Position numbers and translations under genes: made by a program. 64,000 nucleotides of DNA from Myxococcota bacterium (GTDB taxonomy: Bacteria > Myxococcota_A > Bradymonadia > UBA7976 > UBA1532). Under the pieces are notes generated by a model. The model made no database searches and was not told the DNA's origin. It saw only the letters and a list, made by a program, of their open reading frames with translations. Shown here piece after piece: positions 3 to 62,300 of this stretch (the stretch's first letter is position 1; the number at the start of each line of letters is the position of its first letter). The stretch covers positions 132,969 through 196,968 of the forward strand of contig JAYZEG010000001.1 in assembly GCA_036337435.1 (NCBI GenBank), read 5' to 3'.

Positions 3-1706
3 TTGGATTCTCTTGGCAATCTCGGCAAGGGGAAGAGTAAACTACCCGATTGCCTCCAGCCCGACCGGGTTGATCGGCAAATGTTGCGGGGCTGCCTACA
101 ATACGGTGCCAGTGAGAGGGCAACCGAAGCCTTGGCAAAAGCCATCAAATGGCCCGTCGAACAAACGCGGATTCGCCTGATGAGGTTGTACGTTACTGGA
201 CAATTCACATCTCGTGGTGCCAGTTTAGCTGAGCTGAGAAGAGCTGAAACTCAGCTGCAGGGGCAAAGTTTTTTCGAACGCCTGGGCGTACCGACGACCG
301 CTGATTCAGCGGCCATTGCCGCAGCCTATGACAAACGAATCGCGGAGCTTGTTGGCAGTAGCTCGGCTGAAGGTGGCGAAGTCCGCCGACTCGCCAACTC
401 CATCCAAGAGCTTCTCAGCGTTGCTCGACGTGTATTGGCTGATGATGCCCAACGAGCTGTCTATCGACGTGCCCAGCAATCGGGTGCTGATTTTAACGAT
501 CCCAATGTCCGCGACGCGATGCTGAGAGATCATTTCCTGACTCAGGGTAAACTTTTGCTCGATCGCAGCCAATATGAGGACGCGAAAGGCCTTCTCGAAT
601 CGGCGGTTACCCATGCACCATCGGAACCACGAGGCCACATTCTTCTCGGGTGGGCGGAGTATCTAAGTTCTGACGAATCCGAAGAAGCAGCGAACGCGGC
701 GGTCGCACGCATTCGAAAAGCCCTTGAATTCGATCGGAATTCCGATGAGGCCTATTTATACATGGGGAAGATCTGTCGTTTGGCAGGACAAAAAGAGGAC
801 GCTCGCCGTTTCCTCAATCAGGCAACACGAATTAATAATGACAATAATGAGGCTTGGGCCCAGCTGCGGATGGTGAACACCCAAAAAGCTGCACGAGCAG
901 GCTTAAACCTAGACATTTCGGTCGGTCAAGGTGTCGGACCGGTATTGGCGACCGCGTTCTTCGTGTTGGCGGGTTTGTACGCTGGGGCAAATCTAATTGA
1001 GGGTGGCGCAAAAGAATGGCCGATGCTCGAAGATGGGAGCCAATTGAACCAAGTCCGGCAGATAAAGGATATGCCGGCTTGGATGAAAAAAGTTCAAGAG
1101 AAGCGTCAAGCAGAGCAGACTTTCGATATTCCCAAGGCAAAACAGGTTGTGGGGAACGTTGAGTCCTACATGCTCCCAGAGGACACCTGGTACTGGACTC
1201 GACGCGGGATTCTATTATTCATGGGCCTCTTCGGCATATTGGGGATCGCGAAAAGACGATTCAACGATATCAAACTCATCGAAAAAGGGGGTGCTTGGCT
1301 GTTTTTTGGGTGTTTATACGGACTGGTCGTGGGCTTTTTATCGCCACTGCCACTCACGCCAACGCCCTTGCTGCCCGCACTTGGGATGGTCTTGACCCAT
1401 ACGCTCGCCGAACAGCTTTTTTTCTTCGGTTTTATCGGGGTTGCGCTACTGGATCGAATTGACAATCCACTGTTCGCAATCGTGCTGACTGCAGCACTCT
1501 TTGGACTGCACCAACTCACATTTTTCGCAACTCTGTCATTGCCACCCTCGGTGATGCTTACAGGCGTGTTGCAAATGACAGCATTCGCGGGTGGCGTGTA
1601 TGCATTCTTGCTTTGGCAAACTGGTGGAATCCTGGCTCCAATCATGGCGCAATTGACCATCATGAGCGTGATGATCGTTCGATGCATCCAGGCATATGGG
1701 GGCTGA
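3..1706 (+). CDS. 5'-partial J-like domain + TPR + CPBP (Abi/CAAX protease) family membrane protein with degenerate catalytic motifs
   Basis: J-like helices (FFERLGVPTTADSAAIAAAY...RAVY) without HPD. TPR helices follow (QYEDAKGLLESAV; EAYLYMGKICRLAGQKEDARRFLNQA). The C-terminal multi-TM region has CPBP-like motifs AEQLFFFG / LFGLHQ / TGGILAPIMAQ. The ORF is open at the window edge. Confidence 0.7.
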   Translation: MDSLGNLGKGKSKLPDCLQPDRVDRQMLRGCLQYGASERATEALAKAIKWPVEQTRIRLMRLYVTGQFTSRGASLAELRRAETQLQGQSFFERLGVPTTADSAAIAAAYDKRIAELVGSSSAEGGEVRRLANSIQELLSVARRVLADDAQRAVYRRAQQSGADFNDPNVRDAMLRDHFLTQGKLLLDRSQYEDAKGLLESAVTHAPSEPRGHILLGWAEYLSSDESEEAANAAVARIRKALEFDRNSDEAYLYMGKICRLAGQKEDARRFLNQATRINNDNNEAWAQLRMVNTQKAARAGLNLDISVGQGVGPVLATAFFVLAGLYAGANLIEGGAKEWPMLEDGSQLNQVRQIKDMPAWMKKVQEKRQAEQTFDIPKAKQVVGNVESYMLPEDTWYWTRRGILLFMGLFGILGIAKRRFNDIKLIEKGGAWLFFGCLYGLVVGFLSPLPLTPTPLLPALGMVLTHTLAEQLFFFGFIGVALLDRIDNPLFAIVLTAALFGLHQLTFFATLSLPPSVMLTGVLQMTAFAGGVYAFLLWQTGGILAPIMAQLTIMSVMIVRCIQAYGG

Positions 1707-2813: not shown

Positions 2814-2842
2814 TTGCCTCACAGCCAAACAGTATGTAAACT
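2814..2842 (+). promoter_or_regulatory. putative sigma70-type promoter for the small sorted protein/exosortase pair
   Basis: TTGCCT (2814-2819), 17 nt spacer, TAAACT (2837-2842). An AAGGA Shine-Dalgarno-like sequence precedes ATG 2881. Confidence 0.5.
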
Positions 2843-2880
2843 ACTGACAAGAGAGTAGTGGAGACGATAAGGACACAACT

Positions 2881-3105
2881 ATGAAAACGAGATTCTCACG
2901 ATTACTCAGCGGCGCGGCTGTTTTTCTATACGGTGCGGCGGCATTCGCTGGCTCTTCATCAGGTGGTGGGCCAGCAGGTGATGCGGGTAGTTCAGGTTCC
3001 GAACCCGCTTTGTATGCGCTCATTCTCCTGACCTTGATTCCTGGATTCTACCTCGCGAACAGAGCTCGAAACGCGCAAGCGGTCCCCGTCCGTAAGGACC
3101 GGTAG
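2881..3105 (+). CDS. 74-aa exported protein with PEP-CTERM-like (SEP) C-terminal sorting signal; probable exosortase substrate
   Basis: Signal peptide MKTRF...AAAFA|, Gly/Ser linker, then SEP-ALYALILLTLIPGFYLA-NRAR...RKDR (motif, TM helix, basic tail). It has a good RBS and sits 45 nt upstream of an exosortase. Confidence 0.8.
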   Translation: MKTRFSRLLSGAAVFLYGAAAFAGSSSGGGPAGDAGSSGSEPALYALILLTLIPGFYLANRARNAQAVPVRKDR

Positions 3106-3150
3106 TCGAGCGCAGTTCGTAGCTGCGCATCGCTCAGAAAAAGGGCGGAC

Positions 3151-4038
3151 GTGCAAACTCAGCCGGCACCTCATCACATACCTTCAGCGTCGACCACAGA
3201 CCGATGGCTTCGGTTTTTCGTGTTCATTGCAATTGCCATTGGCATGGCACCCATCCTCGATTGGAGTTGGACGCTTTGGTCTCATTCGGCATTAGGCGGT
3301 GGCGCGACTGCAGTCGTTGCTATGCCCATCGCACTCATCTTGGGCGGCATAGCCAGTCGCAATAGCGAGCATCTAGATGAAGTTCCCTCTCCGTTGGCTG
3401 GGATCGCTCTTGCTGCATTCATGCTCGTTGCCTCCCTTTTAACGGCACTCGTTGACGGCAATGGCCCCTGGTTACTCGCAGCAGGTACCCTTTATATTTC
3501 ATGCTATTTCTTGTGGTTTTGCTGGTCTTGGGGTTTTCGAAAAGCCATGTCCATCGCCATGCCCCTGAGCTTTCTAATGCTTGTCCTCCCGTGGGAATAT
3601 TACCTGCGATCAACCGCTCAGCTGACTCTTCAATCCTGGACAGCTGATCTGTCTATCTTACTACTGAACGGTTTGGGCTATGTCGTTTGGCACTACAATG
3701 CATTTACCATCGACTCGGACCGATATTACCTGATCATCAATGAGACGTGCTCCGGCATCAATATGCTGGTCGCATTGTTTATGTACACACTTGTCTTCAC
3801 GTGGATGGCGCGTTCTTTTTGGATGACTCGAGTTACCTTACTCCTGCTGGTTTTTCCCATTGCTATGGCGACCAATATCCTCAGGGTGACATGCATTTAC
3901 TTATTGGGTTACTACGGCGGCGTAGAGTGGGCCGACGGCTTTTGGCACAGCGGCAGTGCCTATGTCCTATTCGTACCCATCTTTCTGGTTCTTTATCTGT
4001 TAAACCGCGCTTTTGACGACCGATTTAGAGCGGACTGA
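3151..4038 (+). CDS. exosortase/archaeosortase family protein-sorting enzyme
   Basis: Multi-pass membrane protein with the family triad: INETCSGINML (Cys), ATNILRV (Arg), FWHSGSAY (His). Also FLMLVLPW. No C-terminal EpsI domain. Confidence 0.9.
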   Translation: MQTQPAPHHIPSASTTDRWLRFFVFIAIAIGMAPILDWSWTLWSHSALGGGATAVVAMPIALILGGIASRNSEHLDEVPSPLAGIALAAFMLVASLLTALVDGNGPWLLAAGTLYISCYFLWFCWSWGFRKAMSIAMPLSFLMLVLPWEYYLRSTAQLTLQSWTADLSILLLNGLGYVVWHYNAFTIDSDRYYLIINETCSGINMLVALFMYTLVFTWMARSFWMTRVTLLLLVFPIAMATNILRVTCIYLLGYYGGVEWADGFWHSGSAYVLFVPIFLVLYLLNRAFDDRFRAD

Positions 4039-5457
4039 CCAAGCACCGACACCAATAATTCCAAAGATCAAAACCATCCACCAATCACCAAACCGAACAA
4101 AAAGCGTCTGATTCTGCCTGAGCTGGATCTGACCCTCAATCAGACCTGGCTTAAATAAGCCTAAGCGTTCGGTGACTACACCGTTGGGACTTATCACAGC
4201 CGATATGCCAGCCTGCCCTACCCGAATGAGCCACCGCCGCGTCTCCATTGCTCTCACCATCGCTCGATTGGTCATATGACGCGTGATGGGCGAGAAACCG
4301 AATCCAGCATCGTTACTCGCGATAACCAGAAATTCGGCACCTGTCGCGACCAGTCGACGTGCCATGTCCGGATAAACCGATTCGAGACAAATCATCACCC
4401 CAACGTAGTTGGACCCCGCCCGCATGGCTCGTACGGAATGCCCGGGCGTCAAATGACTTTCCGTGCCAGGCACCAGACGCACTTTACGGTAAATGTCATC
4501 GACCTGGCCGCCTGGTAAAACTGACGCGACCACGTTAAATCGCTTGCCTTGTTTGTCTTGTTCAATCAGTCCGGCGAGCAAAATCGACCGGTCTCTGTTC
4601 CCGGGAAATAGACGGCTGTGTAAGGCCGTATCCCTCAAAACATCGCCGCGTATGGCCGTCTCTGGCCAAATCACAAAGTCCGGATGTCCTTCATATGCCC
4701 TGCGAGTCAGCGTTTCAAATGTGCGGATAATCCCGTCTTGAGCAGCCGGGTCTGCCGTCGCCGCGTGATATTGACTATTGGCCAAACCGGCTTGAACGCC
4801 GGCAATCTTGACCGTCTGCCCCCCGCTCTCTGCACTAAATTGCGTGACGCCAACTGCGCCGAAAACAAGCAAAAAGGCTGTCATAAAAACGATACTTTTT
4901 TGACTATGGCGAAAAGAAATCAGTCCATGAAAAGTGAGACTTTGAACGAGGGCGACAAAACTACTGACGCCAATTCCACCGATCCAAGCTGTCAAAACCA
5001 GCCACGGTCTAAGCCAGCTGACATCAGCAATATTGCCGACATAACTGGCCGGCATACAGACGGGACCGAGTGTGCGTATCCATTCTGACACCGTCCAGAT
5101 TGCCGCGACCACAAGAATGTCTAGGAGACCACCTCGGCCACGCCACAACCACCGAAACAAAAGGCCATAAATGACCATTTGACTTGCTGTGTAGAGACTA
5201 AATCCAAGGAGCAAAAACCAGCCATAATTGATGATTCCGTAAATATGAACGCCGCCGAGAAACCCAACCCAGCCGGCCAAAAGACCTGATTCAAAGTACG
5301 ACGGGCTATATCGTAACGCGCAGAGTAGCGGTACATTTGCAATCAGGGACATGGGTCCAAAATAAACAAAACCAATGCCATTAAAAATGCCCGCCAGGGT
5401 GGCCAGTGCCCATCGTTCTCGTGTCGTACGACCGAATTCTTTGACCAGGGAACTCAT
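4000..5457 (-). CDS. lnt: apolipoprotein N-acyltransferase (CN-hydrolase family)
   Basis: N-terminal TM bundle with WTVSEWIR. Nitrilase triad WPETA (Glu), YRKVRLVP (Lys), ICLES (Cys). Also SNDAGFG, RAMETRR, and C-terminal TLFVRFGDW. Confidence 0.88.
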   Translation of the reverse strand: MSSLVKEFGRTTRERWALATLAGIFNGIGFVYFGPMSLIANVPLLCALRYSPSYFESGLLAGWVGFLGGVHIYGIINYGWFLLLGFSLYTASQMVIYGLLFRWLWRGRGGLLDILVVAAIWTVSEWIRTLGPVCMPASYVGNIADVSWLRPWLVLTAWIGGIGVSSFVALVQSLTFHGLISFRHSQKSIVFMTAFLLVFGAVGVTQFSAESGGQTVKIAGVQAGLANSQYHAATADPAAQDGIIRTFETLTRRAYEGHPDFVIWPETAIRGDVLRDTALHSRLFPGNRDRSILLAGLIEQDKQGKRFNVVASVLPGGQVDDIYRKVRLVPGTESHLTPGHSVRAMRAGSNYVGVMICLESVYPDMARRLVATGAEFLVIASNDAGFGFSPITRHMTNRAMVRAMETRRWLIRVGQAGISAVISPNGVVTERLGLFKPGLIEGQIQLRQNQTLFVRFGDWWMVLIFGIIGVGAWSVRSKSVVKSAV

Positions 5458-41784: not shown

Positions 41785-43926
41785 CTATTGAGGAAGACAG
41801 GCACCGAATTGTCTGAATCGGCGACAGACAGTGCCAGGGACACCACCGCAATCGCCGTCGGCCCCGCAGCGAATTGTGCAGATATTAGGCAAAGACCCAC
41901 CTCGGCCCCGGAAGGTCCAGCAGAACTCGGCGTCAGGGCCACAATCATCATTGCTATCACAGGCGTCTCCAAGGCCCAATTGGCCATTCCCTTCAATGGC
42001 GCTACACGCGCCTGTGACTTCATCGCAGAACGCCCGTAGGGGCTCTGTACGGCCACACTGCCCTTCGTCTACGGTGCATTGATCTTGGTTGTCATCAATG
42101 GCTGCTGTTAAAGAATACTCAGTATCCACGAGGCGATCGCTGGAGAATTGGTCAACCCGCAGGTAATAACTGCCGGGTGCTGTAAAACGAACCTCGATCA
42201 CTTCGGTGACCTGCTCCGGCGTCGTCGAGGACGCGACCAAGTTGCCAAAGTTATCATAGAGGTAGATGTCGATATCGACGCCGGCTCTGAAGGTGGCCGA
42301 AACTGTCATCGCCCAGCTGGCTTGATTTGCCGGGACCACCAATCGATACCAATCATCATCATCATTACAAATTTGTAAGCCCTCGATGGCATCCCCATTG
42401 AAAGCGATCCGAGTCGCTTCATCGCGGGTATCATTGGGGTCAAACTCAGGATCGGCACCCCATTCAGCACTCGGTCTGGGTAAGCCGCAGTAGCGATCAC
42501 CCGTGCGTGCAGATAAACAGGCTTCACCGTCACCACAATCGTCATCGACTCGGCATGCTCCCCGAACCGCGCATCGGCCTTGACGACATGCATAAAATCG
42601 ACCGCAATCATCATCGTCATCACATCCAGGCACGCAGACCGCTGAGTTTCGAGAGATTGGCTGACAGTAGGCATTGGCCCCGAGAGAGCCACACTCACCT
42701 TCTCGTCTACACCCGATGGTGCAGAAATTGTCGTGACCACCCTCGCCGCCGGTGAAGCAGAGGTCTGCGTCCTCGGTACAGTCATCGTTTTGGCCACATC
42801 GCTCACCCAAACCCGCTCCGGCCGGCGGCGCGGTGCAAAGCCCTTCGGAACAAATGGGAAGCCCATCGGCGCGACAGTCTCTATCAGCTTCACACCGACC
42901 TGAACGACCGGCGAACTCGATGGTGTAATCGACCTCACGGTCTTGCTCATCTTCGGGAATAAAAAGTGTTAATCCGATGCGATATTGCCCTGCCGGTAAA
43001 TGAGAGAAACTCAGGCGTTCTGGATTCGACCGCCGATCTGAGATGGCTCGACTGATGACAGCACCCGTATCAGCGTTGATCACATGGACGTCAATATCTT
43101 CACCCTCGTCAAAGCTTACGAGAAGATCGAAGCTGTCGCCATCTTCTGCTTGGAAGGCGAACCAATCTCGGTCAGCACCACAGATACGGCCCGTCAATGG
43201 GTCCATCGGTGCCATTATGGGACTTGCGGTCTGGTCGGTATCATTGGGTTCGAAACCGTCATTTCCGCATGGGTCATCGGCCAAGCCAATGCAGAGGCCT
43301 TCAAACCGATCGCACACTTGGCCCTCGGGACACTGATCATCTAAGGCACAGGTACCCGTCACGGCGAGTCGATAAAATGCAGCTTCGTCCAAATACCCGT
43401 CCACTCGGATGAAGTACTCACCATCGGCCGGCGCGTTGAAATCAACCTGCTCATTCCCTTCTTCGCCGGTACTCTCCACAACCACAGCACCGGTTTCATC
43501 GAGGACCGCCAGGTCAAAATCCGTCTCGATGGGATCAGCCTTTAGGACGATCTGGGTTTGCTGTCCAGCAACCAACTGCAAACGAAACCAATCGTCCGTC
43601 TCCGGACAAATGAACAAATCCTCGCGAAGAAAACCAACCTCAATTTCTGCAGCAGAGTCCGGCCCCTGATTGGGTGCCAGATCATCCTCATTACCACAGC
43701 CGGTGGGCTGTACCACCTCCGGCGGCCCGAGGTCGACGGGTCGAGGATCAGAGCCCGCATCCGCAGTGTCATCAGGTTCGACCGTCATCGACATATCGGC
43801 GATGGACTCACCGGGTTGGGGCTCCGATTCCAGCTGACGCTCCTTGTTCTCAATACAAGCCGTTAAACTCAAAATGATGCTGAAGAGAGTGACCATCCTC
43901 AGATTGGACTTGACGCGTAAGAGCAT
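41785..43926 (-). CDS. lipoprotein with three PPC-like domains separated by Cys-rich repeats
   Basis: Lipobox LTA|C. Three copies of (E/A/D)PN..A..I...IC..D.DW(F/Y)...D.D(L/I/V)....G....S......E.....G.Y. Intervening C..D.DC..G..C repeats. Confidence 0.8.
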   Translation of the reverse strand: MLLRVKSNLRMVTLFSIILSLTACIENKERQLESEPQPGESIADMSMTVEPDDTADAGSDPRPVDLGPPEVVQPTGCGNEDDLAPNQGPDSAAEIEVGFLREDLFICPETDDWFRLQLVAGQQTQIVLKADPIETDFDLAVLDETGAVVVESTGEEGNEQVDFNAPADGEYFIRVDGYLDEAAFYRLAVTGTCALDDQCPEGQVCDRFEGLCIGLADDPCGNDGFEPNDTDQTASPIMAPMDPLTGRICGADRDWFAFQAEDGDSFDLLVSFDEGEDIDVHVINADTGAVISRAISDRRSNPERLSFSHLPAGQYRIGLTLFIPEDEQDREVDYTIEFAGRSGRCEADRDCRADGLPICSEGLCTAPPAGAGLGERCGQNDDCTEDADLCFTGGEGGHDNFCTIGCRREGECGSLGANAYCQPISRNSAVCVPGCDDDDDCGRFYACRQGRCAVRGACRVDDDCGDGEACLSARTGDRYCGLPRPSAEWGADPEFDPNDTRDEATRIAFNGDAIEGLQICNDDDDWYRLVVPANQASWAMTVSATFRAGVDIDIYLYDNFGNLVASSTTPEQVTEVIEVRFTAPGSYYLRVDQFSSDRLVDTEYSLTAAIDDNQDQCTVDEGQCGRTEPLRAFCDEVTGACSAIEGNGQLGLGDACDSNDDCGPDAEFCWTFRGRGGSLPNICTIRCGADGDCGGVPGTVCRRFRQFGACLPQ

Positions 43927-44050
43927 ATTTATTCCCCGTGATGGATTTTGCTGGGCCTGTGTCGAAACCGGTCTATTAAACCACAGACTTCATAAAGATG
44001 GACTGTGCGTTTTTTACCACAGGCCTGTACGCAGCAAGATCCGGGCCGTT

Positions 44051-44098
44051 TTTAGACCAGCTGAGGGCTCTTAAAACGAGCGCGCGCTCTGGTCTAAA
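44051..44098. terminator. intergenic stem-loop downstream of the LTD lipoprotein gene
   Basis: TTTAGACCAG (44051-44060) pairs with CTGGTCTAAA (44089-44098) and encloses an inner GCTC/GAGC stem. It starts 15 nt after the stop at 44114. Confidence 0.4.
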
Positions 44099-44113
44099 GC
44101 CCAGCATGCATGC

Positions 44114-46852
44114 TTACTGACCGCCGCACTCTGTATTGGCTTGCCCAGGAGTACCAAAGTGCTGTGGATCTGCGAGATAAATTTGGTCTGATGCACACCA
44201 AAAAAGTCCTGAATCGTTGGAGCGTGCATCTTGATTAGCCAAATCTAATTGAATGGAGCCTTGTGACTGGGCTGGGAAGCGATTGTCTCGACCATAGATG
44301 ACCAAGTCTATCGTCGTCTCGCCACAAGCCAACGAAAGTTCATCCCCCGCGTTGTTCAGCGAGAAACCAAAGAGTGCATCGGGCCTAATATTTCCATTTT
44401 CATTGGTGTCCGCCGACCGACCAAAGAGGGCGAATCCACCTGGTGATAGGAAGACACCGTCAATGGCAGACTCGGAGCCTTGGTCGCGGACAACACAGCC
44501 ACTCAATGATATAGGTGCCTCAGCAACACTGATTAATTCGAACCACTCGGCAGCGGAATCTGCGAGTCCTGCTCCTGGATCATACATAATCTCATTGATG
44601 ATCACTTCACCCGCAAATGGCGTCCGTGCGCCTTCGGGACCACAGAAGCCATTCTGGCAAGCCTCACCGGCACCGCATTCTTGCCGCGTCTCTTCATAGT
44701 CACAAACCTCATCGATGCCGTCGACTCGACATTGACCAACGGGCGCGTAGGACACGCTGACATTGCCATCGCAGATTCGGGCCGGGGGTTGGTCACACGT
44801 GACGTCCAGGCAACGTACACACTGTGGGTTGACCACACCCGGTGTACCCCGGTGGACCGGGTCAGCGAGATACTCTTGGGTGCTCAAGCACCATGCTTGG
44901 TCTAGATCGTTGTCTGTGGCGTTGAGGGCACGGGCATCAAGGCTGATGGATGTCGCTCGAGCAGCGTTTCGGTTGCCTGCCCCATCCGTGTATGTGACCT
45001 GATCGATGACAACACCGCCACAGGTGAGAATCAAGGTGTCGCTGGAATTGGTGAGGTTGAAATAGAATCGATGGTCAGCCCGAAGCCCGCCATTGAAATC
45101 GGGGATGTCCGAACGGACGAAAAGCGCAACACCACCAGGCTCTACAATGACACCCTCGATCACAGTTGGCTCACTTTGCTGGGCTCGGTTTTCGTCAAAA
45201 TCAGTCAACTGACAATTGTCGAGATTCAGGGGCCTATCCGTCGGGTTATATACCTCGATCCATTCCGCATTATTTTCTCGAATTTCTGCCCTGGGTAAAT
45301 CGGGTTCGTAGTCTGGATCATCAGGATTATACATGATTTCACTGAACACAATTTCACCCCGCCCAGGTCCTTGAGGACGCTGGTCATAGCAGGCACCGTA
45401 GACACAGACTTGCGCGGTTTGACCGCAGTCGACTCGCGTCGCGGGATAGGCACATTCTGCCAAGCCGTTCTCACCGACCAGACATTCACCCGCAACCCCA
45501 AATTGTACTGCGATATCGCCCTCACAATCACCAACCGGGGGTCGTCCACAAGGATTTGGGTCACATGGCGCGAGGGGTGGAGCCGCTGTCATCTGACCCG
45601 CGTTTTCAACCGTGTAGCCATCGTCAGAACCGGCCTGACCGCCATCGCAATAAAGCCAGGAGCGGCCTCCATCAACAGTAAATCGATATGCATAGTCGTA
45701 TTGGCCTGGCAGTGGAATGAACAAGCGCGCCTGATATTCATCAACGCCAGGTTCTCCGGATACGTTGGCATCGTAGTCAGCATTGGGCCTGGCCCAAATC
45801 CAAATCCATTCATCGTTATTTTGTGGCTGGCTGCCATCGGGTCCAAAGCCCAAGTAACCACGAACTAAACCGTAGGCATCGACGGACGCAGAGCGGTCTG
45901 TAATGCCCTGCTCGCGCACACGACCATAAATGGTGACCTCATCGCGGTATCGACCGTCCGTGGTTTCATTTGGAATCGCTGTGGGTGATTGCAGACGACA
46001 GAAGTCGGTGATTTCATCACAAGGGCCATTGGCCGAACCAGGCGTACCCCACTGCACAGGCTCTTCAAGGTAAGCCCGCCGTGCAACGCACCAATTTCGT
46101 GCTTGGTCATTGGCTGTTGTCGATTCTTGACCGGGCGTCAGGCTAAGACTGAATCCCTGAGCCCGAGGAAAGCCTTCATCGAAGTCATAGTGCATGACGT
46201 CTACAATGGTTCCGCCGCATTGCAACACGATCCGATCACGAGAATTATTCAGTGCAAAACCGAAAATGCCGTCAACATCGAGGCCACCGTTAAGTCCTTG
46301 ATCATCGCTTCGTCCATAGAGTGCGTAGCCACCCGGCTCGATGGTCACATCACCTAATTCCGATATAGATGTGCCATCAGTGAGTTGGCAATCTTCAAGG
46401 GCGAAGGGCTGGTCGCTCGTATTATACAATTCGATCCATTCGGCGTTTTCGTCCGTCAGTCCATTATGTGGATCGAGCATGATCTCTGTGATGATGACCT
46501 CACCGGTTTGAGGCACCTCGACAAAGTCGCCAGATTCCCCGCCGGCACCTGCTGAACCGCCCTGGCCTCCCGCGCCAGCCATACCGCCGGTCCCTGCGGT
46601 TCCGCCGGCTCCACCTTGTCCAGCCGTGCCACCTTGACCACCTGTACCACCCGTGCTGCCCATATCGACCAAAAGACCGCCAGTTCCGCCTACGCCCCCT
46701 GTACCGCCTGCGCCGCCACTGCCCGCGTCCCGCGGGGTCAGAATTTGACCCGTTCCACCACCTGCATCATCACCTCCACAGGCGAATAGAAAGGCCGCTG
46801 AGACGACGAGGGTTATCCGATTTAAATAATGTCTATGAGCTTGTTTCTTCAT
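44114..46852 (-). CDS. lipoprotein with Gly-rich linker, three lamin-tail domains (LTD) and an Ig-like insert domain
   Basis: Lipobox LFA|C, GGTGG linker. Three copies of GE(V/I)(I/V).EIM.DP/NP...EW(I/F)E...F.L.N..D...L.C....D...WC...GTPG..N. Confidence 0.85.
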   Translation of the reverse strand: MKKQAHRHYLNRITLVVSAAFLFACGGDDAGGGTGQILTPRDAGSGGAGGTGGVGGTGGLLVDMGSTGGTGGQGGTAGQGGAGGTAGTGGMAGAGGQGGSAGAGGESGDFVEVPQTGEVIITEIMLDPHNGLTDENAEWIELYNTSDQPFALEDCQLTDGTSISELGDVTIEPGGYALYGRSDDQGLNGGLDVDGIFGFALNNSRDRIVLQCGGTIVDVMHYDFDEGFPRAQGFSLSLTPGQESTTANDQARNWCVARRAYLEEPVQWGTPGSANGPCDEITDFCRLQSPTAIPNETTDGRYRDEVTIYGRVREQGITDRSASVDAYGLVRGYLGFGPDGSQPQNNDEWIWIWARPNADYDANVSGEPGVDEYQARLFIPLPGQYDYAYRFTVDGGRSWLYCDGGQAGSDDGYTVENAGQMTAAPPLAPCDPNPCGRPPVGDCEGDIAVQFGVAGECLVGENGLAECAYPATRVDCGQTAQVCVYGACYDQRPQGPGRGEIVFSEIMYNPDDPDYEPDLPRAEIRENNAEWIEVYNPTDRPLNLDNCQLTDFDENRAQQSEPTVIEGVIVEPGGVALFVRSDIPDFNGGLRADHRFYFNLTNSSDTLILTCGGVVIDQVTYTDGAGNRNAARATSISLDARALNATDNDLDQAWCLSTQEYLADPVHRGTPGVVNPQCVRCLDVTCDQPPARICDGNVSVSYAPVGQCRVDGIDEVCDYEETRQECGAGEACQNGFCGPEGARTPFAGEVIINEIMYDPGAGLADSAAEWFELISVAEAPISLSGCVVRDQGSESAIDGVFLSPGGFALFGRSADTNENGNIRPDALFGFSLNNAGDELSLACGETTIDLVIYGRDNRFPAQSQGSIQLDLANQDARSNDSGLFWCASDQIYLADPQHFGTPGQANTECGGQ

Positions 46853-46967
46853 ACCGTTCTTTCCATCAGTTTAGCTAAGCCAGGCACTCAAGGTTATGGC
46901 AAACGTCGAGGTAGAAGGGCGATTTACCCTTTTCGGTCCACAGCTCAGCTGAAATAGAATCCGCCGG

Positions 46968-46996
46968 ATAATGCTGATCTTGAACCAAATCGTCAA
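46968..46996 (-). promoter_or_regulatory. putative sigma70-type promoter for the LTD lipoprotein gene
   Basis: On the minus strand: TTGACG, 17 nt spacer, CATTAT. This implies a leader of about 110 nt before ATG 46852. Confidence 0.4.
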
Positions 46997-47120
46997 CTAA
47001 AGAACGTCGAAAATGCAGGGCCCCCCATGGATGAGATCCAATCCTGTGGACTGCAAACACTGGATCATGATGGGTTCATCGGCCGCTGTTCATCACCGCG
47101 CAGTCGGGCTTTGTATGGGA

Positions 47121-48092
47121 TTACTGACGGATGTCGGACGGCCCTCTTGGCTCAATCTTGCTGTTGGCATTCCCCAATCGCAAGACCCCCGCGATGCTCT
47201 GGAAACGGGTTCCGACGGTCGGCAATGGAGTTAATCGATAGAAGTAATCATCGATCCGAAGTTGACCGTCTACGACAAACTCATACGTCGGCATACCATC
47301 CTGCCCATCTCCAGGTCCGACTTCAGGTTCCACGTCAATGACGGCAACATCATCAACCCTGACCAGCATACCCTCTAAAGCTGATGCCTGGGGTCCACCC
47401 GTTGATATGTCGCCTGGCGGCACGACCACAGGGTCCGGAATCACCGACTGCCCGATGGATTGAAGTGCTTCAACATGCTGAATCTGCCACTGGCCATAGA
47501 AGTCATTGGTCCGACCAGTCAATCGGACCAGTGTACCCGGCATAGGAGGATTCATACGCCACGCCTCGTTGTCTGCATTGTTGAGATAGATCCAGATTCC
47601 ACTATTGGCTTGTCCTCGATATCGAGCACTGTCGACCGGAACTTGCAAGACCATGTGCGAATAGAGGTTATCTGCATTCAGGCGCACCGCTGTGACGACG
47701 CCTTCCACAGACACGGTCGTATCGTCGGCCAATGTGCCTGATTTCACATCATAGATATCGACTTGAGTGGCATTGCCGCCACCTGCACCGCCGCTGCCCC
47801 CAGACCCGCCATTTCCGCCTCCGGTTCCGCCTGTGGCAACGGGTCCGGTGCCGAATTGGCAGATGCCTCCCTCACAGGTGGCTCCAGCCCCGCATTGGAA
47901 GCTGTCGGTACAAGTCGCGGTACAGCGAAAGGACTGCGGATGACATAAGTTTGTTTGGCAGTCGGCATTGACGGAGCACGATTGACCGAATCCGACCATC
48001 ATGCTGCTCTGGCTCGTTGGGTCGTCGGTCCCGCCGCAACCAAAAGTCATGGCCGTCATCAAGGTTGAAACAAACATCAGGGTGCGAAACAT
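47121..48092 (-). CDS. lipoprotein with Cys-rich module and tandem OB-fold-like domains
   Basis: Lipobox TFG|C, Cys repeats, Gly linker. IYDV...VSVEGVVTAV...SGIWIY...GTLVRLTG...FYG and ALEGMLVRV..V.V...SIAGVL...KIEPR resemble OB folds of extracellular nucleases. Confidence 0.7.
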   Translation of the reverse strand: MFRTLMFVSTLMTAMTFGCGGTDDPTSQSSMMVGFGQSCSVNADCQTNLCHPQSFRCTATCTDSFQCGAGATCEGGICQFGTGPVATGGTGGGNGGSGGSGGAGGGNATQVDIYDVKSGTLADDTTVSVEGVVTAVRLNADNLYSHMVLQVPVDSARYRGQANSGIWIYLNNADNEAWRMNPPMPGTLVRLTGRTNDFYGQWQIQHVEALQSIGQSVIPDPVVVPPGDISTGGPQASALEGMLVRVDDVAVIDVEPEVGPGDGQDGMPTYEFVVDGQLRIDDYFYRLTPLPTVGTRFQSIAGVLRLGNANSKIEPRGPSDIRQ

Positions 48093-48184
48093 ATCTTCTC
48101 CAGCAAACTTAGATTGATCGAGGCGACAGAGACTGGACCCGGATACAGACGATGAACCAGGCCCAAATAGACTCTATCGACGGA

Positions 48185-51100
48185 CTAGGGGCAATGGCTG
48201 CCGATGCCATCAAAGGTATCGTTAGGAAAACCTGTCCATTGAGCCGATGGATCAAAGACATCACCTCCATCGGCGTCGCCGATGGCCACGTCACAATTTC
48301 TTCGAAGTGTCGAGTCGAGAGTTGATAGTTCCTCCGAAGACCATGCATTTCCTGGATCGAAACCAATTTGGCCAATGACGTCTAGAATGGTGCCACCGCA
48401 AACCAATGCCAGTGCATCATCGCCATTGTGGTTTAGTGAGCCAGACGTCTGATTACAGGTATCCAACAGGACTTGGTCGGCCCGCCCATTGCACAGGGTG
48501 TAGACAGCGCCCGGTGCGAGCATCAACGGTTGGTCATCTGCACCCAAGTCAATGCTGTCGGCATCTTGAGCCTCGGCGCCATTGGTATAGACGTTGACCA
48601 AACACTCATTGAGGTCGATGGCCACGGCACCGGCGTTGTAGATTTCTACGGCCTTGTTAAAGGAACTGCCCTCGATGTACTCACTGAAAAAAGCGGTTAT
48701 ATCTCCCTCGACGGGTGGCTCCATTTCAACGACACATTCGCCGTCCTGACAGGTGCCTGCAAGACAGTCGGCATCAGCCGCACACACAGGGATTGCATCG
48801 CCTTCACACGGTCCAACTCGACTACTTAGGACGTATTGGTCTGCTCCTTCGGCAACCTCGATGAAGAAGCTGTCGACCATAATGAAGTATTCAACACCAG
48901 CGACAGCATTGATGGACACAGCCGACTGAAAACCACCCGCAAAAGCCGGTGCGTTATCATTACATGCAACTTCGTTGGCATCGGGTCCCGTGCACGCCGT
49001 GTCTCGAATATACAGGACAGGGTCAACCACATTAGACCCTCGGGTCTGGAAGCAGACTTCGGTGTCCTCTTGGACCGTGAAAGTGTGCACCTTCTCTGGC
49101 CCAGCACCCGCTCCACCACAGCCTGCAGCCGAATCTCGACTCAGGCCATCGGACAGGCTACCGGTCAATATCTGACCCAGAGCATAAGCGATGGGCGCTT
49201 CACAGAGACCGCCACCGTCTGGCTGAGCCACGCAGGCATTATCGAAGCAAATTTCTCCTTCGGCACATTGCGCGGTCTCAACGCAGGCGACACATTGGTT
49301 GGCCAAGGCACCATCAAGGGCACAGACTCCATCGGCGCAGTCTCCATCCGCGGCACATTGGACACATTGGTTCTCGGCACAAACGCAGGCACCACCATTA
49401 CAGGCAAGCTCACCGCAGTCGGCCGCCTCTCGGCACGGCGCGCAGGTGTTATCCTCAAGGCAGATGCCATTGGCGCACTGGTCGTCTACGCGACAGTCGA
49501 CTTCAACGCATGCACCCTCCTGGCAGAGCTCTCTGGCTCCACAGGCATCATTGTCCTCGCAGAAAAATTCGCAGGCATTATTACGGCACACATTGGAGAA
49601 GGGGCAATCGTCATTGTCGATGCAGACGGGTGGCACGTTGGCTGCGCAGGCACCGATGGACGACGATAAGACATAATTACCGAGACCAAACTCGCTGAAT
49701 GCATCGACGAATACGAAGTAGGTTTGGTCAGCGACAACATTAAATTCAACGGTTGAACGGTTGCCGACATCGAGGATGCTGCCTTCAAAGCGATCGTCGT
49801 CGTTGCATGCGACTTCCATACCCCCATTGCATTCGCCTGCTCTCACGTACAGAGACGTATCGTAATTTGAATCACGGGTCGTCAAACACACGGTCCCGGC
49901 AGCCGCAGCGGAAAATGAGTAGATGATCTCTCGGCCGCTGCCGGCACAGCTGCCGCGCGTTGTCCCTGAGTACGGTTCATTAATGCCGCGAACGACCGTA
50001 CCCAGTTCATAGGCGAGCGGGTCGTCACAGGTATCTCCACCCTCTAGACAATACCCGTTGATGCAAACACCATCAGCGCAGTCTGCATCCTCGCGGCAAT
50101 CGCGACAGGCGCCCGCATTGCAGAACGACCCTTCGCCACAATCTGCGTCTTCCACGCATGCGACGCAGGCCGCTTCGGAACAGAGGCAAGGTCGACCGCC
50201 ACACGCATCATCGTCACAATCCGCTGCAATTCGACAATCGACGCAGTTTTGGTCAGCACAAACACCACCAAAGCAGTCGTCATCGTCAAGACAATCGACA
50301 AAGGTACACGCGCCCTCAATACAGGCCTCTGGGGAAAATCCCATACAATCTGCATCGACTTGACATGCGTCTCGACATCGATTGGCGCGACAGACCTCGC
50401 CGTCTTCGCAGTGATCGTCTACGGCGCATTCAACACAGCGATTTTGGTCGCAGCGATTGTCGAAGAAATTGTTTTCGCACCCAGCGTCGTCAAGGCATTC
50501 AACAGCCCGACAAGCCCCTTCTGTACAAAGGGCATTGCCGACACAGGGCGTCTCTTCGTCACAAGCGAGTCCGCAATTTCCAGCCCGGCAGATTTCATCG
50601 CCGACACAGTCGTCATCGCCGATACAACTAGGCGGAATCACGTCTGAACACGCACCGAGGGATGTAGACAAGATGTAATTACCCGATGCACCCGACCAAC
50701 CATCGACAACGAGGTAGTAGGTCTGACCAGCACTCACTGCAAATTCGATGGTCGACCGAGTCCCGTCGGCGATTTCCCATTCATTGTCGTCATCATTACA
50801 TTCGAGTTCATTGGCCCGATTACACTCAGTCTCGAAAACATAGAGCGCTGTATCGTAATCGGAGCCTCGGGTCGTGGCACAGACGGTGCCGTCTTCTGGT
50901 GCCTGGAACGCATGGACAACATCAGGCGATTGAGCACCTTGACACGAGCCTGTGTTGAGCGGCGCATAAATGGCCGTGTTGCCTCGAGCAATGGAGCCAA
51001 ATTCATACATGATAGGCTCTGCACAACTGTCACCCGGGGGAGGCGGTTGGCATAAATCATCTAGGCAGATATTGCCATCGGCGCAATCAGCATTGTCACG

Positions 51101-51916
51101 ACAGTCAACGCACGCGTTGAGGACACAGAAGTCACCCTCACCGCAATTCGCATCGTCGCGACACTCTTCGCATCGGTTATTCACGCAAAATCCATTACCG
51201 CACTGATCATCGGCATTACAACCGACACAGGCATTCTCAAGGCATTGACATGGCGTGCTGCCACAATCCTGGTCTGCACAGTCATCGACAACGCGACACC
51301 CAACGCACACGTAATCAAGACAAACCCCATTGGCGCATTGTTCATCACCCCGACATTCGACGTCGATGCAAATGCCGTTTGCACAGGCTTGCTGTTCAGC
51401 ACAACCTGCATCGTCATCACATGCAACACGGCAAATGTTGTCTACACAGAGTCCAGTCTCGCCACAATCAGCATCGACGCCGCATTGGACGCACCGGTCT
51501 TCAAAGCAGACTTCATTGCCGATGCATCGGGTCGCACCACAAGGCACACCGCCCCCGCCAACACCGCCTGCACCGCCTGCACCGCCTGCGCCGCCTGCGC
51601 CGCCTTCGGCACCAGCACCGCCTACACCGCCTTCTGCACCGGCACCACCAGCGCCGCCTTCGGCACCAGCACCACCTGAACCGCCTTCGGCACCGACGCC
51701 TCCAGCACCGCCTTCGGCACCGACGCCTCCGGAGCCACCCTCTGCGCCTGCACCGCCTGCACCGCCCGTACCGCCTTCGGCACCAGCACCACCTGCACCG
51801 CCGATAGCGCCGACACCACCGGCGCCGGCAGACGAACTTGATGAATCACCACCACAACCGACAGACAATGCCAAAGCGAATGCGATGACGAGTTTTTGCG
51901 AAATTTGGATTTGCAC
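48185..51916 (-). CDS. large lipoprotein: Gly-rich repeat, Cys-rich repeats, three PPC-like domains, C-terminal LTD
   Basis: GTG start with GGGG RBS, lipobox LSVG|C. Three copies of C..T.(G/D)S..D..LY......E..CND. Many C..D.DC..G..C....CV units. LTD FFSEYIEGSSFNKAVEIYN...NGDDALAL...DVIGQIG.DPG..W. Confidence 0.85.
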   Translation of the reverse strand: MQIQISQKLVIAFALALSVGCGGDSSSSSAGAGGVGAIGGAGGAGAEGGTGGAGGAGAEGGSGGVGAEGGAGGVGAEGGSGGAGAEGGAGGAGAEGGVGGAGAEGGAGGAGGAGGAGGVGGGGVPCGATRCIGNEVCFEDRCVQCGVDADCGETGLCVDNICRVACDDDAGCAEQQACANGICIDVECRGDEQCANGVCLDYVCVGCRVVDDCADQDCGSTPCQCLENACVGCNADDQCGNGFCVNNRCEECRDDANCGEGDFCVLNACVDCRDNADCADGNICLDDLCQPPPPGDSCAEPIMYEFGSIARGNTAIYAPLNTGSCQGAQSPDVVHAFQAPEDGTVCATTRGSDYDTALYVFETECNRANELECNDDDNEWEIADGTRSTIEFAVSAGQTYYLVVDGWSGASGNYILSTSLGACSDVIPPSCIGDDDCVGDEICRAGNCGLACDEETPCVGNALCTEGACRAVECLDDAGCENNFFDNRCDQNRCVECAVDDHCEDGEVCRANRCRDACQVDADCMGFSPEACIEGACTFVDCLDDDDCFGGVCADQNCVDCRIAADCDDDACGGRPCLCSEAACVACVEDADCGEGSFCNAGACRDCREDADCADGVCINGYCLEGGDTCDDPLAYELGTVVRGINEPYSGTTRGSCAGSGREIIYSFSAAAAGTVCLTTRDSNYDTSLYVRAGECNGGMEVACNDDDRFEGSILDVGNRSTVEFNVVADQTYFVFVDAFSEFGLGNYVLSSSIGACAANVPPVCIDNDDCPFSNVCRNNACEFFCEDNDACGARELCQEGACVEVDCRVDDQCANGICLEDNTCAPCREAADCGELACNGGACVCAENQCVQCAADGDCADGVCALDGALANQCVACVETAQCAEGEICFDNACVAQPDGGGLCEAPIAYALGQILTGSLSDGLSRDSAAGCGGAGAGPEKVHTFTVQEDTEVCFQTRGSNVVDPVLYIRDTACTGPDANEVACNDNAPAFAGGFQSAVSINAVAGVEYFIMVDSFFIEVAEGADQYVLSSRVGPCEGDAIPVCAADADCLAGTCQDGECVVEMEPPVEGDITAFFSEYIEGSSFNKAVEIYNAGAVAIDLNECLVNVYTNGAEAQDADSIDLGADDQPLMLAPGAVYTLCNGRADQVLLDTCNQTSGSLNHNGDDALALVCGGTILDVIGQIGFDPGNAWSSEELSTLDSTLRRNCDVAIGDADGGDVFDPSAQWTGFPNDTFDGIGSHCP
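51549..51826 (-). repeat. coding Gly/Ala tandem repeat, mostly 27-nt GAEGGxGGx units
   Basis: Seven GAEGG(T/S/A/V)GG(A/V) units plus GGA triplets just after the lipobox. Confidence 0.85.
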
Positions 51917-59338: not shown

Positions 59339-62300
59339 TTAAAGCTGGTTGGCCTTCCACGTACACGCCGCGTCTGTTTCATCGGATCCATCCGTGCAAT
59401 CCGACCAAGGATCGGCACCATTTTCACAAACCCAATCCGGTTCAATACAACCCGAACCATCCACGCATTCGAAAAGGCCTGGCGCACACTCGTTATTGCC
59501 GTTGTCGCCACCGCCGCCACAATTGGCCTCGTCTGATCCGTCGTTACAATCACCAGCCCACTCATCGCACCGCCAGTCAGCGGAAATACATTGAATCCCA
59601 TCGTCACAAAGCCAGCCATCAAACCCATTATCAGTAACGCATGCACGGTTATCGCCGCCACCGTTATCACCACCACCGTTGTCACCACCGCCATTGTCAC
59701 CACCGCCATTGTCACCGCCGCCATTGTCGCCGCCGCCGGCCAATTCAAAGCAGCCGCAGCCACAGACAAGATCGTAGACTTGGGCGTCGGCAGAACAGCC
59801 GAACATAACAGCAGCCTCTTCCATGTTATTGACACCGAGCTGACCTGGCAGATCAGCGCAGACGTTGGGATCAGCACTGAATTGAGTCACACTCTCATAA
59901 GTTGGGTCGTCAGCGCTCGGACAGCCCGCAGCGCAAGCATTATCGACACAGATTTGCCCATTGGCACAATCGGCATCACCAAAGCAGACCTCGCCTTGAT
60001 TTCGACATTCGTTTTGGAAACAAATCTGACCATTGCCGCAATTGGCATCGGCACTGCATTCGACGCAGTCTGAGCCATCAGCTAGGCAAATGCCTTTCTG
60101 AGGGTCATTGCAACCGGCATTGTCGGCCGGATCACAGACTTGGCAAACGTCGTTGACACACTGTTGTCCATTACAATCTGCATCGTTTCCACACCCATTA
60201 TTACCACCGGCAACGCATTGTTCTGATTGAGGATCGCAGATTTCACCTTGGGCACAGTCGTTGTCGTTTAAGCACCCATTGTCGACACATTGGCCCGTGG
60301 CAACATCACAACGTTGACCGGCGTTACAATCACCATCGCCCTGGCAGTTCAGTGCATTCTTCCAAGCGCATGCGGCCTGGGTCTCATCTGAACCGTCTCC
60401 ACAATCCTGCCATGGGTTGGCACCGGGTTCACAAACCCATTGACTTTCTACACACGCAGACCCATCAGCGCAGGTGAAAAAGCCGGCGTCACATTCATTG
60501 TTTTCGGGCGGATCAACGCACTGGCCTGTATTGGCATCACAGACTCTTTCACCATCACAGTCGGCATCATCAAGACATCGGGCAATGCATTGAGTGCTGG
60601 CCAAATCGCAGACTTCGTTCTGCCCGCAGTCCGCATCGCCTGCGCAGCCAGCCCGCTCAACGCATTGGTTCGTTGCTGGATCACAGGCAAATCCATCATC
60701 GCAATCGCCATCGCCGTTACACGGTGGCGGGTCGACGCACTCAAACGTTACAGGGTCACAGACCTGATTACCTTGGCAATCTTCTTTGACTCGGCAGGCC
60801 GGACAGTTGTTCGGCGCTTCATCCTCGCCTCCAGCGCAATCAAACGCCTGGTCATCACAGACCCAATTCATGGGTATGCAGGTGTTGTCATTGCATTTAA
60901 ACTCACCTTCTCGACACGTAATCTCAACTTCATTCGGGTCGATACATCCGCAGCCACAATGTGTGTCAAAGGAGACAAAGCCTTCACCAGCTTGACCGCA
61001 TTGAAGGTCAGGAATGTTATTGCATTCTTGGCTGTCACCGCTGGCATAGACCACAAATTCACTGGTTGGGTCCGGGCAGCCATCAACTTGACAGAGTTGT
61101 CCACAGGTTGCATCGGCACTGCAGAAAGCAATGCAGTTTGGGTCGTCGGGAACAGGGCAGTCCAACTCATCTTCACACGCTTGTGCGAGCACTGTGAATC
61201 GACCAGCTTCGATGGACTGGAAGCCATTATCAGAACCCGCCCCGCCGTCACACGCAAGATAGGTTTGACCACCGTCGACACTGAATCGAATTGAGAATGA
61301 GTAACTGTTTGGATTGATGGGTGCCGTGATCTGCCCGAAATACTCGTCCCGCCCACGGTCGTCGGCATCGCCCGTCAAGGTGCCGTCCCAGTTTGCGTTG
61401 CCTTGCGCATCGAACCAGGTCCATGCCGCGGCACTAAAAGGATCATTGGGATTGGTACCATTAGGTCCATATCCGACTTGAGCGATGATGAGCGGGTTCT
61501 GGTCATAACCGGTGGTCACATCGGTCATATTGCCCTCGTAGAGTCGGCCATAGACATTGAATTGTGCTTGTGGTTGGACATCGATGCGCAGGCGGTCGCC
61601 TGCGTTGCCTTGGAATCCGTCCACCCATTGCAACTTACAAAAGTCGACAGCGTTTGGCTCACCACCACCATTTTGGTCTACGCAGGCACCATTTTCACAG
61701 ATCTGCCCCTGCTGACATGGATTATTTTCATCGCAGTTGGGCTCGACTGGGTCGACGCATTGACCTTGGTCACAGACCTGATTTCCGTTGCACGGCATGG
61801 CATCACTGCATTCGCAGTCATTGCCTTGGTCGTCATCACAAACACCGCACATGTCTGTAAGCGCATTGCCGTTGCAGATACCGGCGCAATCTTGGGCGTC
61901 AGGAAGGCAGCACACACCCTGATCATCAGTCACCGAGGGCCCTTCACACACGCCTGCACAATCCAGTTTATCTGGAGTACAGCATGCGCCGTTGGCATCT
62001 GTTGCCGCCTGACCATTGCAAATCCCTGCACAATCTTGGTCTGCAGGGAGACAGCATCCGCCGCTCCCATCCTCGACAGCTTGACCGCCAAAATCACCGT
62101 TACAATCTGCAGCGCAGTCGTTATTGGGGTCTGCATCGCACACGCCGCAGTTATCTGTCACACCGTTGGGTGCTTGAACCTCAGCGCTCCAGCAATGAGT
62201 GGGTCCGTCCAGGGTACATTGATTGTCGAGAGCCCACTGTTGATTTACGTCGTAGATGCGATTTGCGCCGCCTTCCCAGACACCATCCACAATGGCTTTA

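Follow-up and report, generated by a model that had tools for sequence, protein, structure and literature searches.

A likely dedicated exosortase and its passenger-less mini-substrate in an uncultured lineage of Myxococcota

The exosortase A (XrtA, or EpsH)/PEP-CTERM system, described in Haft 2006 (PMC1569441), is covered by the models PF09721, PF07589, TIGR03109, and TIGR02595. We analyzed a related gene pair in a 64,000-nucleotide stretch of DNA from a Myxococcota bacterium (the window; contig JAYZEG010000001.1), where the gene of a 74-aa precursor lies just upstream of an exosortase gene (Table 1). The window is part of a 4.38-Mb draft genome (52.6% G+C, 87% complete), hereafter the source genome. 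The pair shares with the XrtA system a membrane enzyme carrying Cys, Arg, and His, a target with a signal peptide and a C-terminal signal made of a motif, a helix, and a basic tail, and, within the window family, P-E-P as the commonest motif. Passages of a later preprint (bioRxiv 10.1101/2023.06.07.544157) give Cys/Arg/His as the triad of these membrane cysteine proteases and describe the helix of PEP-CTERM signals as abutting the signature motif without a spacer, which is also the arrangement in the window peptide. A second relative is XrtV/PEPxxWA-CTERM, whose models NF035943 and NF035944 have neighboring accession numbers: XrtV is the best-scoring subfamily for all 19 exosortase orthologues that we aligned, and some of the peptides read P-E-P-E-T-W-A. 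XrtJ/PExPT-CTERM (TIGR04199; PF27850, Targ_of_XrtJ) and XrtX/PID-CTERM (NF046081) resemble the window pair in that each combines one exosortase with a precursor of very small size, and JDVT-CTERM/MrtJ is, in the relevant passages of the same preprint, a one-to-one enzyme-target system recognized by co-occurrence and by consecutive genes rather than by numerous unrelated targets. Private exosortases with mini-substrates have been catalogued before in other subfamilies, and the window pair is one of several of this design.

The window pair nevertheless differs from each of these systems. Unlike the XrtA system, it has an enzyme that falls below 208 bits and lacks EpsI, one target instead of many, a target without a passenger domain, a location outside an exopolysaccharide locus, and an S-E-P motif that the PEP-CTERM models miss. 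It departs from XrtV/PEPxxWA-CTERM in the score of its enzyme (85.7 versus 313 bits) and in the source genome, where no PEPxxWA-CTERM target reaches the 35-bit cut-off. The window family differs from the XrtJ and XrtX pairs in its motif, in its fixed-length Gly-rich core, and in its taxon. According to the passages cited above, JDVT-CTERM/MrtJ relies on a CPBP glutamic protease and an invariant Cys, whereas the enzyme here is an exosortase of the cysteine type. None of the peptides matched the target models of these pairs, PF27850 included; their nearest look-alikes are Atlas clusters of 56 to 75 aa annotated PExPT-CTERM, IPTL-CTERM, and VPEID-CTERM, whose scores of 0.78 to 0.84 make them leads only. 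A literature search on XrtV/PEPxxWA, PID-CTERM, XrtX, PExPT-CTERM, and XrtJ found nothing relevant. What is particular to the window pair is the combination of unnamed enzyme and peptide families, a Gly-rich core of fixed length, presence in all searched genomes of its two carrier families, and surroundings in which no polysaccharide genes were found.

Table 1. Features of the exosortase locus and of its neighbors, in window coordinates
Feature	Position	Strand	Remarks
Precursor ORF, 74 aa	2881-3105	+	stop codon 3103-3105 included
Predicted Sec signal peptide, aa 1-23	2881-2949	+	A-x-A at -3/-1; Ala21 and Ala23 invariant in 22/22
Gly/Ser/Pro/Ala core of 16 residues, aa 24-39, sole "passenger"	2950-2997	+	Pro31 and Gly36 invariant
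S-E-P signature, aa 40-42	2998-3006	+	Glu41 and Pro42 invariant in aligned orthologues
Predicted hydrophobic helix of the sorting signal, aa 43-58	3007-3054	+	Ala46 and Pro54 invariant
Predicted basic cytoplasmic tail, aa 59-74	3055-3102	+	R/K cluster after the helix in 22/22; Ala62 invariant
Exosortase, 295 aa, GTG start	3151-4038	+	PF09721; 45 nt after the precursor stop
Exosortase triad codons	Cys200 3748-3750; Arg245 3883-3885; His266 3946-3948	+	Cys200 within NETCSG
Ribosome-binding site AGGA	2870-2873	+	7 nt ahead of the ATG at 2881
Promoter-like element TTGCCT-N17-TAAACT	2814-2842	+	TTGCCT 2814-2819, TAAACT 2837-2842
Neighbor A, 567 aa, TPR and C-terminal Rce1-like (CPBP) membrane domain	3-1706	+	TPR_19; PF02517 28.9 versus 22.4 bits
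Neighbor B, 145 aa	1707-2144	+	between A and the precursor; overlaps C
Neighbor C, 210 aa	2141-2773	+	between A and the precursor; overlaps B
Lnt, apolipoprotein N-acyltransferase	4000-5457	-	TIGR00546 153.6 versus 132.9 bits; convergent, overlaps the exosortase 3' end by 39 nt
Ser/Thr kinase fused to a C-terminal FGE-sulfatase (formylglycine-generating-enzyme-like) domain, 865 aa	5958-8555	-	syntenic across the family

We examined the enzyme against the Pfam and NCBIfam models. Its only Pfam match is PF09721 (residues 27 to 284, model positions 3 to 250 of 254, 103.6 bits for a cut-off of 25.7), and Pfam revealed neither an EpsI domain nor any other additional domain. Cys200, Arg245, and His266 are invariant in 19/19 orthologues, so that the intact triad and the lack of EpsI proposed by an initial annotation, which had been made from the sequence alone, both hold. 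With 60.7 bits for a cut-off of 23 in TIGR04178, the protein belongs to the exosortase/archaeosortase superfamily. At the level of subfamilies, it scored best with XrtV (85.7 bits; cut-off, 313), followed by XrtA (76.7; cut-off, 208), XrtD (71.1; cut-off, 400), and the generic 8TM_EpsH model (70.4; cut-off, 105.55). All 19 orthologues stay below every named cut-off, with XrtV as their top subfamily (best E value, 2e-32). XrtX (cut-off, 170 bits) had no match in the source genome at E values up to 0.01; XrtJ did not match the window enzyme and was weakly matched by 3/19 orthologues (best E value, 2.8e-8). Since the enzyme lies below all named NCBIfam cut-offs, we assign it to an unnamed subfamily, and by the same kind of model comparison the peptide family is unnamed as well. 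The initial annotation had already suspected an undescribed exosortase subfamily, and the scores agree with this. Less is new here than it suggested, as small dedicated targets have already been modeled for XrtJ and XrtX. A predicted complex of the exosortase with the mature peptide scored 0.08, against a mark of 0.32, which speaks neither for nor against binding.

We then analyzed the precursor. It consists of a 23-aa signal peptide ending in A-F-A, followed by GSSSGGGPAGDAGSSG, S-E-P, a hydrophobic segment ∼16 residues long, and an R/K tail; these parts, the ribosome-binding site, and the 45-nt gap, all listed in the initial annotation, can be read directly in the DNA. We infer from the A-x-A motif that the signal peptide is cleaved after it. 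The window precursor has no Pfam or NCBIfam match. Comparison with the closest relative, a member of the same genus, showed 35 synonymous and 7 nonsynonymous codon differences, with 36 of the 45 base changes falling in third positions, in agreement with the coding conservation expected from the initial annotation. All 7 amino acid changes affect the signal peptide or the tail; the core sequence is identical in this closest pair and differs between genera. In an alignment of 22 orthologues (78 columns), residues A21, A23, P31, G36, E41, P42, A46, P54, and A62 are invariant, and the profile built from this alignment (the peptide profile) detected the peptide in each relative genome of the family with E values of 1e-19 to 1e-30. 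As judged from its codon substitutions, the short open reading frame (ORF) is a real gene under purifying selection.

The promoter-like element upstream of the precursor, also taken from the initial annotation, is present and is kept as TTGCCT-N17-TA(A/G/C)ACT in the source genome and two congeners, although the flanking intergenic DNA has diverged. As a consensus match it fared less well, with 8/12 matching positions and no call in a consensus scan (0 sites); the conservation across congeners is better evidence for this candidate site than the consensus match. Metatranscriptome contigs at least 99% identical to about positions 2876 to 3189 were found in 3 libraries from 3 studies, with starts at 2876 to 2911, and are compatible with transcription of the precursor gene. 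They stop short of the rest of the exosortase gene and of the upstream DNA, and such contig gaps prove nothing.

The sequence upstream of the helix is more informative for its length than for its residues. Counted from the predicted cleavage site through E-P, 10 of the 22 orthologues have 18 residues, 9 have 19, and 3 have 20. The core itself has 15 to 17 residues in 22/22, of which 5 to 13 are Gly, 0 to 2 are charged, and 0 to 5 are Ser or Thr; some cores contain 13 Gly in 17 residues, and 10/22 have no charged residue. In the aligned sequences, the length of the spacer is conserved and its sequence is not, which makes it probable that the spacer serves as a flexible tether with a defined reach, rather than as a folded or sequence-specific module or a recognized epitope. 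We also searched 1.84 billion representative proteins with the peptide profile and obtained 34 matches at E values of ≤0.001. All are 56 to 109 aa long and share the four-part layout, and none carries a larger passenger. On this evidence, the cargo-less state of the mini-substrate is a conserved state, and the near absence of a passenger domain seen in the initial annotation extends to the whole set of homologues.

Two other proposals of the initial annotation did not survive comparison with the orthologues. It had proposed S-E-P as a possible new sorting motif ("SEP-CTERM"). The residue ahead of the invariant E-P is P in 11/22, S in 7/22, and A in 4/22 orthologues, and 8/22 peptides weakly match the PEP_CTERM model TIGR02595 (best E value, 0.0016), 3/22 match PEPxxWA-CTERM (E value of 0.0023 or weaker), and 1/22 matches PF07589 (E value, 0.0053); the tripartite arrangement of motif, helix, and basic tail is present in 22/22. 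Because P-E-P is the commonest form and E-P is invariant, S-E-P is, as far as the alignment tells, a local form of the P-E-P of PEP-CTERM. The six Ser of the window core, listed there beside a possible glycosylation of the peptide, are not conserved, and since three orthologue cores are free of Ser and Thr, Ser O-glycosylation is unlikely as the conserved function, and we rejected it. The idea that an N-terminal oligo-Gly could serve as a sortase-like nucleophile is likewise unsupported, as the sister-family peptides have Glu or Asp at their predicted mature N terminus.

Next, we looked for other targets of the enzyme. The source genome has a single exosortase gene, and a profile built from the sorting signal of this family found, among the 85,624 six-frame ORFs of the genome, this peptide only (E value, 7.5e-17), the next-best ORF having an E value of 0.058. 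The single dedicated target proposed in the initial annotation is thus also the single match genome-wide. A second candidate target, which a regular-expression scan had found on another contig, is absent among the matches listed by the sorting-signal profile. The generic PEP_CTERM model gave six matches in the source genome, all at chance level, four of them ending in a helix with RRRR or KRR and two being internal. Three of the four tails, which belong to long ORFs on separate contigs, contain Cys, are MYXO-CTERM-like, which is no surprise in Myxococcota, and are unrelated to the exosortase target; the fourth has a helix and RRRR without a GC motif. MYXO-CTERM signals are processed by CPBP-type myxosortases, according to passages of bioRxiv 10.1101/2023.06.07.544157.

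We then surveyed 61 genomes of the class, comprising 28 from the family of the source genome, 3 from a sister family, and 30 from five other families. The peptide profile matched 28/28 genomes of the family (source genome included), 3/3 of the sister family, and 0/30 of the other families, with one full-length match per genome in all 31 carriers. The exosortase clade followed the same distribution, being found in 27/27 other genomes of the family (one of them with a weak partial match, E value of 1e-4) and in 3/3 of the sister family. It was found in 0/28 genomes from four of the other families; the fifth gave weak matches only (2/2), and it has no peptide (0/2). Within the family, 24/28 genomes have one PF09721 match and 3 have two; the single genome without a match is 77% complete. 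The three with two matches, which make up one genus, encode a second, more distant exosortase (67 to 69 bits with PF09721, in frames of 377 to 590 aa).

Evaluation of the gene order showed that the peptide gene is located directly upstream of the exosortase gene, on the same strand, in 22/28 genomes of the family, the arrangement for which the initial annotation had suggested checking homologues. Each of the remaining six has one intact peptide copy elsewhere (E values of 1e-19 to 1e-26). In three of these, the gene preceding the exosortase abuts it and the single intact peptide gene is on another contig, and in one a contig end intervenes, so that adjacency cannot be judged. The other two, from one genus, have an adjacent degenerate copy without the Gly-rich core in addition to the intact copy elsewhere; one of the degenerate copies, in the genome with the weak partial exosortase match, is broken by a TGA. 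The neighbors of the unlinked peptide genes revealed no shared partner. These unlinked intact copies exclude a cis-acting upstream or leader ORF and imply that selection keeps the peptide itself.

In a species-level genome collection we found 24 related loci, all in metagenome-assembled genomes, plus two weak matches in Opitutus. The 24 are labeled Myxococcales, Myxococcota, Bradymonadia, Nannocystaceae, or simply bacterium, in line with the Myxococcota lineage given by the initial annotation, and the sequencing runs that contain the stretch are seawater or marine metagenomes. The pair was probably inherited vertically within a lineage of the rank of an order, made up of uncultured and mostly marine Myxococcota.

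One target per genome, co-occurrence, and usual adjacency, the features by which Haft 2023 recognizes dedicated one-to-one pairs, were all found here. Our analysis makes it likely that the two genes form a dedicated one-enzyme, one-substrate exosortase system. Several observations weigh against this conclusion. As the genomes are kin and not independent, the co-occurrence of enzyme and peptide reflects a single gain in one clade, which makes it weaker evidence than the numbers alone would indicate. The two genes are unlinked in the sister family, whose peptide is more diverged, with the same four parts. The whole neighborhood is syntenic within the family, housekeeping genes (Lnt, HMGL-like) included, and adjacency alone could be partly a product of inheritance. 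None of the PEP-CTERM models matches the peptide of the window itself, whose link to PEP-CTERM rests on the orthologues. Lastly, contaminating DNA in the RNA libraries would also yield contigs such as those described above.

Analysis of the surrounding genes revealed a conserved order in the family: A, B, C, the peptide, and the exosortase, followed by the convergent genes of Lnt, a 163-aa protein, and the kinase-FGE-sulfatase protein. Gene A was found upstream of the exosortase in 17/18 loci of the family and in 2/2 loci of the sister family. Its product also has a weak DnaJ-like match (E value, 0.088). By eye, its first CPBP motif reads E-Q, the usual form being E-E, and the His found in the last motif of its relatives is Q in the source genome, where the CPBP domain of A may be inactive. 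B and C are conserved by tblastn synteny. Neither B nor C of the window has a significant Pfam match, and the C of a relative with a high-GC genome matches Response_reg (E value, 1.5e-11); at the sequence level, both look like degenerate receiver-like proteins. Lnt adjoins the exosortase in 18/18 loci of the family and in 0/2 of the sister family; in one rearranged relative it is still beside the exosortase, with both genes on the same strand. We considered Lnt as a dedicated partner and rejected it: it is the sole full-length Lnt found in the source genome, the sister family does not have it next to the exosortase, and it is therefore probably a housekeeping enzyme. A Pfam search of the 14 kb upstream and of the other ∼55 kb of the window revealed no genes for polysaccharide synthesis.

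The 45-nt gap contains a hairpin at about 3110 to 3128 with an 8-bp GC-rich stem (z, -1.35), and the stem is present in the closest congener, with another loop, and absent from a second congener. A terminator-like hairpin at 3198 to 3216, in the 5' coding region of the exosortase, was dropped, as 3 such sites were found for 1.7 expected by chance and as its T-run corresponds to Phe codons absent from the protein of the congener. Farther away, at 41785 to 51916 and 59339 to 63976 (both on the minus strand), the window encodes very large predicted secreted proteins, two with PPC domains (one of which also has a lamin-tail domain) and a third with lamin-tail domains, and a 1,545-aa protein with a cupredoxin domain and an LDL-receptor class A repeat.

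We propose the following sequence of events for the pair. Sec would insert the precursor, signal peptidase I would cut it after A-x-A, and the C-terminal helix would retain the remainder in the inner membrane such that E-P lies where the membrane meets the periplasm. Cys200, helped by Arg245 and His266, would then attack at or next to E-P, the helix and basic tail would be discarded, and a thioester would form with the remaining Gly-rich peptide of ∼16 to 19 residues, which would be passed to an acceptor or to water. Between these two outcomes, we lean toward transfer to a lipid head group or an envelope glycan, which would leave a tiny anchored peptide, rather than toward hydrolysis and release. 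A more specific proposal, which we make tentatively, is that the pair is a minimal peptide ligation device, placing a Gly-rich tether of fixed length (18 to 20 residues) onto a phospholipid head group, a glycan, or another non-protein molecule of the envelope.

The exosortase might instead merely hydrolyze the anchor, so that a free Gly-rich peptide of ∼16 to 19 residues would be secreted as a signal or a matrix component, in a manner reminiscent of AgrB/AgrD processing. The precursor would have the same architecture in this case, and the variation of the core between genera, together with its identity in the closest pair, is what a lineage-specific signal might display. The conserved neighbors include receiver-like proteins and a Ser/Thr kinase, and the restriction of the RNA library contigs to the precursor region is a weak hint of a high level of precursor transcript. 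However, a nearly homopolymeric Gly stretch carries little information for a receptor, and ten of the 22 cores are uncharged; it is the length that is conserved, not the sequence, and no receptor was identified. We consider a released peptide rather unlikely.

We give less credence still to the possibility that the peptide acts on the exosortase as a small bitopic partner in the membrane or as a regulatory pseudo-substrate, the real substrates of the enzyme bearing a signal that our searches did not recognize. A single copy per genome and strict co-occurrence would suit such a role, the invariant Ala46 and Pro54 could mark a helix-helix interface, and several proteins of the source genome end in other helices with RRRR tails. 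Against this, those tails hold Cys and resemble MYXO-CTERM, and the invariant E-P right before the helix occupies what is, in the passages available on these systems, the signature position of exosortase cleavage signals. Moreover, a mere partner helix needs neither a cleavable signal peptide nor a spacer of fixed length. Finally, an ordinary many-target XrtA/PEP-CTERM exopolysaccharide system or a chance short ORF, in spite of the Pfam exosortase domain and of XrtA being the second-best subfamily, is refuted by the score shortfall from 208 bits, the absence of EpsI and of polysaccharide genes detectable by Pfam, the single target in the source genome, the excess of synonymous changes, and profile E values down to 1e-30.

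The preferred interpretation, that of a dedicated pair, bears on an open question, namely, what exosortases attach their targets to; according to passages of bioRxiv 10.1101/2023.06.07.544157, it is not clear if they act as transpeptidases in one step. A pair with a single substrate offers a clean and tractable model, and with one enzyme and one substrate of ∼19 residues in mature form, mass spectrometry is a suitable means of finding the cleavage site and any C-terminal adduct. The pair is conserved across a whole order, and its surroundings in the source genome show no link to a polysaccharide locus. It suggests that an exosortase can be kept in a lineage for the sake of a cargo-less peptide alone, in which case a processed tag or tether, and not a displayed protein, must be the selected product. 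If the pair is indeed a ligation device, it would produce a class of peptide-decorated lipid or polymer not yet described in bacteria, and no simpler system than this cargo-less pair would exist for identifying the acceptor of exosortase transpeptidation, which has long been sought.

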